A stretch of 44,840 nt of DNA from Chiloscyllium plagiosum (Eukaryota). Every line of letters begins with the position of its first letter. Within the stretch, counting starts at the first letter, position 1. The stretch covers positions 105,372,770 to 105,417,609 of the forward strand of contig NC_057717.1 of assembly GCF_004010195.1 (NCBI RefSeq). The letters are read 5' to 3'. Both the position numbers and the translations under genes were made by a program. Of this stretch, positions 11,338 through 44,840 are shown piece after piece. The notes under the pieces were generated by a model. The model had not been told where the DNA came from. It did no database searches and saw only the letters and a list, made by a program, of their open reading frames with translations.

Positions 11338-11388
11338 ATGTCGGTGCAGTCTGATGTGATGGGGACCGCCGAGGACCTCGCTGACCAG
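11338..11388 (+). CDS. SURF4: SURF4-family ER cargo receptor, coding exon 1 (MSVQSDVMGTAEDLADQ)
   Basis: ATG at 11338 inside a CpG island; donor CAG|GTTAGC at 11388/11389, phase 0; resembles the SURF4 N-terminus MGQNDLMGTAEDFADQ. Confidence 0.93.
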
Positions 11389-12099
11389 GTTAGCCTCCGC
11401 CCGGCCTCAGCCAGGGTCACCGGCCGCCGCTCAGGGACCCTCCGCCCGGGGATCGTGTTACTAGGAGAGGGGGGTGGGGGGGAATCTCGGGCCTAGTGTA
11501 GGAGGGCAGCAGCCGCAGCCGCAGCCTGGGCACGAGGGTTGACCCCTCAACATACTCTGTGCTGAGCTGGGATCCCTCACCTTGTGGCTGTGCGATAAAA
11601 CACTACAATGAAGTACTGCTTATTGTAAAAAAAAAGTTAATGCTAGATCAAACAGGACTAAATGTCTTAATTCATAAAGTTAAAAACCCTTCATAATGCA
11701 CAACACCTTGTTCATGTTTTAAAAGAGTGTGTTAACACATGAATCGGTGTACTAAACTTTACCGAAATCTTTCAAATGCTTACATTTTTTAAAGTTAAAT
11801 TCAGCAAATTTCTTGTGTATGATTGTTTCATAAACCCTTACTCTAAGGGAGAGCGAAAACGGTTCTGTTTAGTCACAAAAACAAGTGATTCAGTAGTTTG
11901 TGACATTGACGTGGATTGAAACAGATTGTGTGCCATCTTGCAGTTTTGGGCAAACTTTATTCTGTATTTATTTATAGGGCACTAAAGCCATATTTGCCAA
12001 GTGTAGATCAGTTTTCCCATTTGTTGTTTTGGGTAGATCAAGTTCTTTGATTTATTAGGTGAATGCAGTATATAGTATAACTAGATTATGCAATTTTTA

Positions 12100-12826
12100 T
12101 TCACTATTGGGATATGGACATCGCTGGCTGACCAGTGTTTTCTGCCCATATCTAGTTGCCCCTTGAGAAGGTGGTGGTGAGCTGCCTCCTTTAACTGTTG
12201 CCGTCCCTATGCTGTAAGTTGGCCCACAATGATATTAGGGTCGGAATTCCAGGATTTTTACCTAGTGACATTGAAGAAAAGGCAATATATTTCCAAGTCA
12301 GAATGATGAATGGCTTTGAGGGGAACTTGCAGGGGTGTATTCCTGCCCTTGTCCTTCTAGATGGAAGTGATCATGGGTTTAAAAAGCGCTGTCAAATGAT
12401 TTTTGGTGAATTTTTGCCGTGCATCTTGTAGATACTAACAGTCGTGTGTATTGAGTGTTAGTGGTGGAAGAAGTAGGTTTTTGTGGACATGGTTCCAATT
12501 AAGTGTGCAACTTTGAGCTGGATGGTGTAAAGCATCTTGAGTGTTGTTGGAACTGCGCTCATCCAGGTAAGTGGGGAGTATTTTCCCATCAACTCCTGAT
12601 TGGGCCATATGGATGATGGATAGGCTTTGGGAAGTCAGGTGGTGAGTTAATCGCTGCAGTGTTCCTAGGTTCTGACCTGTTCTTGTAGCCATTGTGTTTA
12701 TGTGGTGAGTCCAATTGAATTTCTGGTCAATGGTAACCTCCAGGATATTGATCTTGGGGGAATTCAATGATGGTAACATTATTGAACATCAAGGGGCGAT
12801 GGTTAGGTTGACTCTTATTGGAGATG
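12100..12826 (-). mobile_element. CR1/L2-group LINE 3' fragment
   Basis: The - strand ORF reads INILEVTIDQKFNWTHHINTMA..GQNLGTLQRL; the same 3' end occurs on + at about 15440-15655. Confidence 0.7.
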
Positions 12827-13510
12827 AGAGCTGAAAATGTGTTGCTGGAAAAGCACAGCAGGTCAGGCAGCATCCAAGGAACAGGAGAATCGATGTTTCG
12901 GGCATAAGCCCTTCAGGAATGAGGAAAGTGTGTCCAGCAGGCTAAGATAAAAGGTAGGGAGGAGGGACTTGGGGGAGAGGCGTTGGAATTGCGATAGGTG
13001 GAGGGAGGTCAAGGTGAGGGTGATAGGCCGGAGTGGGGTGGGGGCAGAGAGGTCAGGAAGAAGATTGCAGGTTAGGAAGGCGGTGCTGAGTTCGAGGGAT
13101 TTGACTGAGACAAGGTGGGGGGAGGGGAAATGAGGAAACTGGAGAAATCTGAGTTCATCCCTTGTGGTTGGAGGGTTTCCAGGCAGAAGATGAGGCCTCA
13201 ACACATCTATCCTAGGACAAGCCAAACAGAGACATGCACGAGAATTCCTAGAAGCGCGGCACTCCGGAACTCGATCAACAAACACGTTGACTTGGATCCC
13301 ATTTACCACCCCCTGAGAAAAAGAACATCACCAGGAAATGACATCACCAACCCAAGGAAACCTATACACACAAATAAAAAGTGGGCCATACCACCAGTGC
13401 TTCACCAGAGTCTCACTGATGATGTTACCTAGTATGATGATGAAACAGCTCAGCGAGCAAACCAAATCCAGAACCTCAACTTGAGCTACAAATCCTCTCA
13501 AAACTTGCTG
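12827..13510. mobile_element. PLE family A fragment (-, 12827-13198) joined to a PLE family B 3' end (+, 13199-13510)
   Basis: Similar to other copies in the window; defective hammerhead motifs near 12890-12918 (-) and at 13416 (+). Confidence 0.75.
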
Positions 13511-14427
13511 AAATAAATTATCACCAAATGACACTGTTTACATGTAAGGTCATCAGCAAAGCAGTAGAGAACAGTTCATACCAGAAATTTGATTCCTAAC
13601 CTTGTTTATTAGAAAAGTGGATAAGTAGTTTGCAAATTAAAGTTAAATGGTTTGATGAATGTTAGTAAATGGTCACCTGATTTAAAAGCTAAATAGTACA
13701 TTTTGTACAATATGTTGAAATAGTGATACTGTCGATGTAAAACTTAGTTAAAACATTGATTTTTGGCATGGACATATAGTGAGAGTTCTATTTTATAGGT
13801 ACAATTTGTACCAATTTCCAGTGGATTAGTTGATTCAACGGATGTACTTTTAAACAAGAGCAAGCATGCATTATTTTTAATACAGTGACTCTTGACAAGA
13901 GAGTTTAGAATTTTGATTAATTGACGTGTAAAAATATTCAGTTCAGCTTCCAAATTCCTTGCCTCCAATTGTGTACAGAATCTTTGTGTAAGACAAAGCC
14001 CTGGATGAGATGTAAACTTATTACTGCTTACAAAAGAAAATATATTTATTTCCTTACTGCAGAAAACCACACTGTTTCTGTTCTACATTCCTTTGTTATT
14101 ACGTTTAAGACTGAAATGTGAATCTGTAATCTGTGGGGCTTCTCTTTGTCTTAAACTCTGGTTGATTGGTCCATGAAACCTGAATAACTCCACTCTAACT
14201 CTGTGTGATTATCACCTTTTAACTCTGAACTTTGTAGTCACTTCATCAAAAGTAGTGTGCAACATTTTCTGTCTCTCAATCAGAGATTAATCTGAATAAG
14301 CAGTATTAATACAGTTGAAATAAAGTAATCCAGAAAAGCAGGAAAGAGCCAGTCACAACACATTGACATTTGTCATTTACGTGCTCATTTTAACTTTAGA
14401 ATGACATAATTTCTATTTGTTTTTCAG

Positions 14428-14614
14428 TTTTTACGTGTGACCAAGCGTTTCCTGCCTCATGTTGCACACTTGTGTCTGATCAGCACATTCTTGGAAGATG
14501 GGATTCGCATGTGGTTCCAATGGAATGAACAGTGTGACTACATCAACATGGCCTGGCACTGTGGGAACTTCCTTGCCACCATGTTTGTTTTGCTTAATAT
14601 GGTCGGGCAGCTAG
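14428..14614 (+). CDS. SURF4: SURF4-family coding exon 2 ([62 protein letters not shown])
   Basis: Acceptor tttgtttttcag, donor G|GTGAGT, 187 nt; contains the SURF4 motif [18 protein letters not shown]. Confidence 0.97.
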
Positions 14615-43136: not shown

Positions 43137-43346
43137 TGGGTGGTACGTGTATGGAATGAGTTGCCAGAGGATGTGGTGGAGGCTGGTACAATTGCAACAT
43201 TTAAGAGGCATTTGTATGGGTATATGAATAGGAAGGGTTTGGAGGGATATGGGTCGGGTGCTGGCAGTTGGGACTAGATTGGGTTGGGACATCTGGTTGG
43301 CATGGACGGGTTGGACTGAAGGGTCTGTTTCCGTGCTGTACATATC
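43137..43346 (+). mobile_element. CR1/HER1-type LINE 3' fragment
   Basis: Reverse complement of the family at 4487-4700. Confidence 0.85.
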
Positions 43347-43347
43347 A

Positions 43348-43680
43348 CGGCAGTTTTGGAGTGGCTCAGTGGTTAGCACTGCTGCCTCACAGCACCAGGG
43401 TCCCAGGTTTGATTCCAGCCTCGGGCAACTATCTGTGTTGAGTCTGCTCATTCTCCACATGTCTGCGTGGGTTTCCTCCGGGTACTCTGGTTTCCTCCCA
43501 CAGTCCACAGATGTGCAGGTTAGGTGAACTGGCCATGCTAAATTGCCCGTAGTGTTAGGTGCATTAGTCAGGGGTAAATGTAGGGGAATGAATCTGGGTG
43601 GGTTGCTCTTCGGAGGGTCGGTGTGGACTTGTTGGGCCGAAGGGCCTGTTTCCACACTGTAAGGGAATCTAATCTAATCA
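43348..43680 (+). mobile_element. tRNA-derived SINE (HE1-like)
   Basis: A box TGGCTCAGTGG, B box GGTTTGATTCC, (AATCT)n tail. Confidence 0.88.
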
Positions 43681-44489
43681 CGATAGGAAAGGAAGCAGTC
43701 AAAAATAAGAGCTAACAATGCAACGAAAATACATTTGAAGAATAAACCGAGGTGAGGGGAAGTGTGACCTTTGCTATAAATTATAGGAAGCAAGTTCCAG
43801 TGAATGGGGGCTACATCAGTGAGCATTAAAGAACGTGGGCTTATTCAATCACGGCTGAGGAAGTTACTGAAATGATTGTCTCAAATTTAAAACAATAGTC
43901 GAACCGATATTGCTTTATTCTTGCTGAAACTATGTCTCGTGGTGCTGTTAATGGAGTAAGGCACAGGGTTGCACAGTGTGGAGTATTTCAGCCCAGTTAC
44001 TACAACGAGCAGTAGTCACGCCCCCTCCCTCCCATTCATCTTTTCAGGAGTACAGCCTCGGAGGATTCCATTTCGGGAAGAGGGGGGGACTACTTCCAGA
44101 AAAGCAACCTCCTGCAAATATCCACTTTTATCAGAATCACTGTGATTACTCATAATCAGATAGTTACTTTAATGTAAAGAAATCACAAGTAATGAAATAT
44201 TTTGCTCACAGCATGAGTGCTGGATGGAATAAAAACATAAACAAATAATTACAACAACCCCCCGTTGTTATTTTTCTGGGATTCTGATGATGAATGACTT
44301 GGACCGTGAGCATGAACCATAACGTGCAGGAGGAGGGGGGTGGCCATCGTGTGTTTTAGAAAGAAACCTCCCGCTAAGTTCATTGTTGAAACATAGAAGG
44401 CAACCAGCTGAATTGGCCAAATTAATTATTAATGGATGGCGGTTGAATATTGATGTTCTGATTCTGACCTGGGTGTTCAAAATGATGAT

Positions 44490-44840
44490 TTATGACTCGT
44501 CCCCCCCTCCCACTTGGCAGCGGGTCGACCAGTCCTGATCGCGCGCGAAACTCCCCGCCCGCTCGCGCCGCTGTTTTCCGCCCGGAGCCGGGAACCGCCG
44601 CCCCCTTTCCCCCCAACTCCACCCGCCGGCCGGCCGGCCCGCTCCATCCGCCCGCCCGCCCGCGATGCCAGCCCGGACCAGCGGCAGTGCCGCCGCATCC
44701 TCCCTGCCCGAGGACATCAGGAAGCGGTGAGTGAATGAATTACCCTCAGGCGAAGCCGGGGCCTGTGGCCTCTCCATCCCCGGGGTGGGGGTGTGTGTGC
44801 GGGGGGGGGGGATTATGGCCGGCCGGTACCGCCAGCGTCA
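44490..44840 (+). promoter_or_regulatory. CpG island / DNMT1 promoter with an E2F consensus site
   Basis: GC/CpG-rich; GCGCGCGAAA at 44541-44550 (TTTCGCGC on the - strand); GC boxes such as CCCCGCCC near 44553. Confidence 0.8.
44665..44726 (+). CDS. DNMT1: DNA (cytosine-5)-methyltransferase 1, first coding exon (MPARTSGSAAASSLPEDIRKR)
   Basis: ATG in a CpG island (cccgcgATGc); 62 nt ending in a phase-2 donor CG|GTGAGT; matches the vertebrate DNMT1 N-terminus pattern MPART...SLPDDVRRR. Too short for the ORF track; the rest of the gene lies outside the window. Confidence 0.85.

Follow-up and report, generated by a model that had tools for sequence, protein, structure and literature searches.

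The window, by which we mean the whole 44,840-nt stretch of Chiloscyllium plagiosum DNA analysed here, carries a SURF4-family gene of six exons (11338-31243, + strand). We consider it probable that this gene is an ancient, expressed second SURF4 that stems from an early-vertebrate (likely genome) duplication, encodes a partly redundant endoplasmic reticulum (ER) cargo receptor and was lost in three groups. The first-pass annotation of this stretch had claimed an intact SURF4-type coding sequence of 270 aa, which the gene model, a RefSeq identity and a Pfam match bear out: all introns are GT-AG, the coding sequence of 813 nt is translated into 270 aa without an internal stop, the product is identical (0 differences) to 'surfeit locus protein 4-like' of Chiloscyllium plagiosum (RefSeq XP_043550941.1), and the Pfam family SURF4 (PF02077) matches residues 6-270 at E=3e-119 over profile positions 2-267 of 267, that is, as a full-length domain. 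The gene comprises the following features.

10900 to 11560, + strand: promoter region, within a CpG island, together with the first exon of the paralogue (GC 0.66, CpG observed/expected 0.93 versus 0.35 for the window).
11338 to 11388, + strand: coding exon 1 with the start codon, 51 nt (tblastn match of the control SURF4, 14 residues).
14428 to 14614, + strand: coding exon 2, 187 nt, with the first transmembrane helix and the lumenal helix carrying the CW-motif site (control SURF4 tblastn match).
22440 to 22516, + strand: coding exon 3, 77 nt (control SURF4 tblastn match).
23602 to 23645, + strand: coding exon 4, 44 nt (control SURF4 tblastn match).
28472 to 28658, + strand: coding exon 5, 187 nt, with the cytosolic Phe-loop (spliced joint with exon 6).
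30977 to 31243, + strand: coding exon 6, 267 nt including the stop, with the ER-ESCAPE pocket helix and the di-lysine tail (spliced joint with exon 5).
31244 to 32946, + strand: 3' untranslated region with two poly(A) sites, at ~31757 (AATAAA at 31733) and 32946 (ATTAAA at 32926), supported by A-tailed reads.

An AlphaFold model of the window protein contains eight long helices plus N-terminal and lumenal helices; the eight are predicted to be membrane helices with cytosolic ends, in an orientation taken from human SURF4. A sequence search found no relative of SURF4 with a solved structure. Within the promoter CpG island, a GC-rich unit of 36 nt occurs in ~2.4 copies (11030-11120), and intron 4 contains an assembly gap of 573 bases (N; window 24847-25419).

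The SURF4 paralogue is transcribed, spliced and polyadenylated. Expression was checked in four runs over positions 28300-33300 (exons 5 and 6 and the 3' region); three of these were contig sets whose RNA nature was guessed, and about 2 in 100 of the poly(A) single-cell run was examined. The exon 5-6 joint, which skips 2318 nt between GT and AG, is present in the three contig sets and in one read of the single-cell run. In the latter, untemplated A tails mark 116 reads ending at 31757 and 22 reads ending at 32946, with a poly(A) signal before each. A further A-tail site at 31982 lies at a genomic A run and was set aside as likely internal priming.

For phylogenetic analysis, 340 proteins were gathered by three protein searches (best 120 of 849, 1461 and 431 matches) and three cluster look-ups, with hemichordates, echinoderms, an annelid and molluscs as outgroups. 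In a hand-picked tree of 64 rows, the window protein falls in a clade of 24 rows (support 98/93) that broadly tracks species order, and canonical SURF4 forms a clade of 28 rows, including eight teleost surf4l proteins (99/97). In a 47-row tree to which tuatara, echidna and platypus were added, the window clade comprises 17 rows (100/97). For approximately unbiased (AU) tests, 32 rows were used (LG+G4, quick tree), with hypotheses named after the trees were known; these tests reject a chondrichthyan-only duplication (p=7e-5), a union of the window clade with teleost surf4l (p=0.006) and a grouping of chimpanzee SURF4 with the copies of marsupials and echidna (p=9e-11). A second SURF4 lineage split from canonical SURF4 before the divergence of cartilaginous and bony vertebrates. 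The proposal of the first-pass annotation that this is a second ancient paralogue rather than a rearranged orthologue is thus upheld by trees and AU tests, with the window protein outside the mammalian SURF4 group. The annotation had also proposed a tree of SURF4, teleost surf4l and amphioxus Surf4; ours places the window protein apart from the first two, and among its rows no amphioxus or tunicate protein was identified. In cyclostomes there are also two SURF4 copies of ancient origin, each shared by lamprey and hagfish (100/99 each in the 47-row tree), and one of the two lamprey-hagfish pairs leans toward the window clade (92/76, not starred). Asp185 is common to both cyclostome copies and the window clade. 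Among canonical proteins, that of Anolis stands out by the length of its branch (0.36) and by a changed tail.

The taxonomic range was read from a tree that FastTree built from 334 of the 340 proteins, the six shorter than 150 aa being excluded. In this tree the window clade has 109 members (support 98), 103 named and six unnamed. The named members are from sharks, rays, skates, chimaera, coelacanth, lungfish and frogs (Xenopus surf4.1, 'surfeit 4, gene 1'), from turtles, lizards, snakes, tuatara and alligator among reptiles, and from opossums, devil, dunnart, antechinus, bilby, possum, glider, wombat and both monotremes among mammals. No placental, bird or ray-finned fish is found among the 103 named clade members listed, and such taxa are numerous among the other 225 proteins; the paralogue seems to be missing from these three groups. 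Assemblies often lack the small, GC-rich chromosomes of birds. The available text of Hara et al. 2018 (PMC5901865) remarks on this too. The annotation had the gene kept in cartilaginous fish and lost in mammals: the first part stands, and the range extends to coelacanth, lungfish, frogs, reptiles, marsupials and monotremes; because the last two keep the paralogue, a loss within mammals could concern placentals at most. Horn shark, a skate, chimaera, lungfish, four frogs and a rattlesnake each carry both copies. In all of these nine pairs the copies lie on assembly records that differ in length, an indirect sign of separate chromosomes, and their identity is 71-79% (computed for eight of the nine). 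Several database models of canonical SURF4 are fused, to SURF2 in sturgeon, to an exonuclease in squirrel and to argininosuccinate synthase in snakehead, and a catfish surf4l model is joined to a CIZ1-type protein. These are probably annotation artefacts that preserve gene order, and all four fused neighbours map to human 9q34.

The residues through which human SURF4 acts are largely intact in the paralogue. The available parts of Maldutyte et al. (PMC11557686) describe, besides an ER-ESCAPE pocket in the lumen, a Phe-loop that serves SEC24A, and DE and EW signals at the C terminus that serve SEC24C; we took human residue numbers from the chimpanzee row, the mutated residues from Table S1 of that paper and D56 of the CW-motif site from a mutagenic primer in the same table. 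In the window protein and in 21/21 non-mammalian members, E39, D40, Y54, Y108, I110, W112, D113, K115, F116, the FAGVP of the Phe-loop, H232, D233, F234-D238, D263, E264, K266, K267 and W269 are all kept; E268 is Lys in the window protein. Because pocket, Phe-loop and tail residues are kept, the protein most likely cycles as an ER-to-Golgi cargo receptor. At the CW-motif site (human E50, D53 and D56) the window protein keeps two of the three acids and has Asn as the third; the D56 position is Asn in 16 and Ser in three of 21 clade members, acidic in 18/19 canonical proteins and Asp in 5/8 invertebrates. The mean charge of the lumenal helix is -1.4 in the clade versus -1.9 in canonical proteins, about half a unit apart. 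Near-fixed changes of the clade are R30H (20/21), L74M, N185D, Y218 to an aliphatic residue and F219Q (21/21), and at these sites invertebrates agree with canonical SURF4. Together with those at D56 and E268, these changes might affect selectivity. Also in the lumenal helix (exon 2, 14428-14614), residue 53 is changed from Arg to Cys in the window protein and three other sharks (4/21 clade members), giving a possible extra lumenal thiol. The mammalian copies are fast-evolving (stem branches of 0.44 and 0.41 in the 47-row tree): D113N is found in 8/8 mammals, and among marsupials Y54 is changed in 6/6 and E264K is present in 5/6. The marsupial copies are strongly remodelled in cargo pocket, lumenal helix and diacidic tail signal, and the opossum tail is changed further. 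Judged by these substitutions, the marsupial and monotreme remodelling would be compatible both with a new role and with relaxed selection that preceded loss.

The first-pass annotation had described the motifs GQLGG, TVAYS, LQDI and DEHKKKW as unlike human SURF4 and more invertebrate-like. All four are present in the window protein, and the description holds for the tail: it is identical to the window's in 6/8 invertebrates, so that here the canonical SURF4 form is the derived one. GQLGG and TVAYS were rejected as diagnostics, being found in 9/19 and 6/19 canonical proteins, respectively. The Asp of LQDI, present in 20/21 clade members, 4/4 cyclostome rows and 0/8 invertebrates (8/8 Asn), is a derived state by this comparison. 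Overall similarity to invertebrates was likewise rejected, since identity to them is 67-70% for the window protein versus 70-74% for chimpanzee SURF4.

From the SURF4 stop to the next ATG there are 13,421 nt, which hold the first of two further features.

33300 to 44400, no strand assigned: intergenic gap of repeat relics, with Penelope-type GIY-YIG pieces and short interspersed repeats and without SURF2 (frame and profile scan).
44665 to 44726, + strand: first coding exon of the next gene, probably DNMT1, with the label unconfirmed (ATG, donor, CpG island).

DNMT1 lies at human 19p13.2, and mammalian SURF4 lies tail-to-tail with SURF2 at 9q34. The annotation's statement that no recognisable SURF2 intervenes proved correct: a 139-aa partial sturgeon SURF2 query gave a best E of 0.28 in the whole window, where the control, skate canonical SURF4, recovers all six exons, and 0 of the 143 stop-to-stop frames of at least 45 aa in the gap match SURF2. 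Two of these frames match GIY-YIG (retroelement relics), and one matches a ribosomal family below cut-off. It had also placed DNMT1 exon 1 13.4 kb downstream on the same strand; the distance, an ATG at 44665, a GTGAGT donor after 62 nt and a CpG island (GC 0.71, CpG observed/expected 0.91) agree, and the DNMT1 label itself was left unconfirmed by four sequence resources. We take the encoded peptide and its intron phase to resemble DNMT1 exon 1, and the next gene is likely DNMT1.

Penelope-type relics with GIY-YIG pieces are found at 549-1364, 33750-34690, 35100-36800 and 39130-40290 of the window, and the segments 688-1364 and 39130-39805 are inverted copies of one another (93% identical). An open frame of 164 aa at 1323-1814 has no Pfam match above cut-off; presumably it resembles the C-terminal part of the first open reading frame (ORF1) of LINE-1. 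Self-comparison of the window also yields self-inverted repeats at 7780-8041, 16221-16381 and 20911-21112.

In our model of an ancient second receptor, whole-genome duplication of the 1/6/9/19 paralogon would have generated the two copies. The paralogue would bind ER-ESCAPE tripeptides in its lumenal pocket, be loaded into COPII carriers through the Phe-loop and the C-terminal DE and W signals, and be returned by COPI through the di-lysine tail, as the conservation of the corresponding residues suggests. Its function would be partly redundant with that of SURF4, cargo or tissue range being modestly shifted, and separate losses in ray-finned fish, birds and placentals would account for its absence there. 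The duplication falls after the split from invertebrates and before the jawed-vertebrate radiation (vertebrate clade 100/100, two gnathostome clades). Of the suggestion in the first-pass annotation that the gene is an ohnologue and a second ER cargo receptor, the ancient paralogue with its receptor residues kept stands; the genome-duplication origin is likely, on the basis of synteny with the human DNMT1 and SURF4 regions. Age, separate records and that synteny together make the paralogue probably an ohnologue. In the available text, PMC13012124 names 9q33.2-34.3 and 19p13.2-13.11 as paralogous blocks, PMC5571153 includes SURF4 in a 9q34 gene list and PMC5133849 gives band positions only.

Five points weigh against this model. 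The losses rest on protein databases, and of the main reptile-lungfish cluster 15 of 98 members were listed. A split before and a split after cyclostomes are not separated by the AU test (p=0.43 and 0.53). Synteny was viewed in the 44,840-nt window, and a second C. plagiosum copy and the wider gene order would lie beyond it. For the 21-30 residues from 44665, no DNMT1 match was found in Pfam, ESM Atlas, PDB sequences or a representative library; ESM Atlas returned unrelated proteins at scores of 0.77-0.78, and the library one 6510-aa repetitive protein matching residues 4-19. Finally, the confidence of the structural model is moderate (pLDDT 66, pTM 0.57).

A more far-reaching reading, to which we give some but rather little credence, is that two SURF4 receptors split the cargo load in most vertebrate lineages, the paralogue combining the ancestral tail and the ER-ESCAPE pocket with a weakened CW-motif site, being rebuilt in marsupials (pocket tyrosine, SEC24C diacidic signal) and lost three times. 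If so, the dependence of placentals on a single copy, including the death of mouse knockouts at a very early stage, would have arisen secondarily, and cargo and coat selectivity could be mapped with the paralogue as a natural variant. We regard as unlikely a clearly different job, either as an ER-ESCAPE specialist without polybasic CW-motif cargo or as a tissue-restricted receptor, rebuilt further in marsupials. The loss of D56 in 19/21 members, set against an acidic residue in 18/19 canonical proteins, the clade-wide R30H, L74M, N185D and Y218/F219 changes, and the marsupial Y54 and E264K and mammalian D113N changes on long stems would all fit such a role; however, invertebrates vary at D56 too, the charge of the helix is little changed, all pocket and coat-binding residues are kept outside mammals, the long mammalian branches equally fit relaxed selection, and three apparent losses suggest dispensability. 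That a gene of the same clade and age reached its place beside DNMT1 by small-scale duplication and transposition, rather than by genome duplication, also strikes us as improbable. The window offers a single neighbour with an unconfirmed DNMT1 label, no paralogous pair flanking both copies is in evidence, and the six-exon structure is kept, so that a DNA-level copy is possible; yet the age matches the genome duplications, lamprey and hagfish also retain two ancient copies, the two copies share a record in none of nine pairs, and the human position of DNMT1 lies within an established paralogous block. It is very improbable that the gene is the mammalian SURF4 orthologue moved from SURF2, the teleost surf4l orthologue or a shark-only duplicate, as the trees, the AU tests (p=7e-5 for chondrichthyan-only, p=0.006 for the surf4l union) and the separate canonical copy in horn shark, skate and chimaera all speak against it, even though the protein is 80% identical to chimpanzee SURF4, some clade members are named plain 'surfeit locus protein 4' and the canonical copy has so far been seen in other cartilaginous fish, not in the C. 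plagiosum window.

SURF4 governs the export of lipoproteins, PCSK9, hedgehog and further cargo, and it is under discussion as a target for lowering lipids. That sharks, frogs, reptiles and marsupials have retained a second receptor for more than 400 million years implies possible redundancy in Xenopus or opossum knockouts, and this receptor supplies natural variants at cargo and coat sites. The paralogue is already annotated in RefSeq and in Xenopus nomenclature, and ortholog databases may already display the two clades. Our literature search, whose coverage excluded most subscription journals, found no paper on its phylogeny, losses or function; the names surf4l and surf4.1 lead to mouse knockout labels and mostly to Plasmodium genes, respectively. 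In the available text of a SURF4 review (PMC9929512), the word 'paralog' is absent and mouse knockouts are stated to die at embryonic day 3.5 (E3.5).

Compared with human and mouse SURF4 (Erv29 family, PF02077), the paralogue shares 80% identity (to the chimpanzee protein), length class, pocket, Phe-loop and diacidic and di-lysine residues, whereas it belongs to a clade of its own, has the tail H-K-K-K-W instead of K-K-K-E-W and the CW site E-D-N instead of E-D-D, and lacks a SURF2 partner at its 3' end, as judged with the partial SURF2 query. It also resembles the 'elusive' ohnologues of Hara et al. 2018 (PMC5901865), of which the available text counts 48 kept only in non-eutherian mammals or paleognaths: it arose by an ancient duplication, has been retained in reptiles, is absent from placentals and birds and evolves faster than its sister. 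Such loss is an already known pattern, which makes the surprise moderate. Unlike those genes, it is present in opossum, one of the three test mammals in that study, and it is absent by name and by three accessions from Table S10 (12 of the 19 supplements were searched). Xenopus surf4.1 and the RefSeq 'SURF4-like' proteins of sharks, reptiles, marsupials and monotremes are its orthologues and form one clade with it. Teleost surf4l ('surfeit 4, like') is likewise a second SURF4 gene and is similarly named; in contrast to the paralogue, it lies inside the canonical clade (99/97) and has the canonical tail in 8/8 proteins, and the AU test rejects its union with the paralogue (p=0.006). This corrects a naming trap: teleost surf4l, probably a copy from the teleost genome duplication, is another gene.

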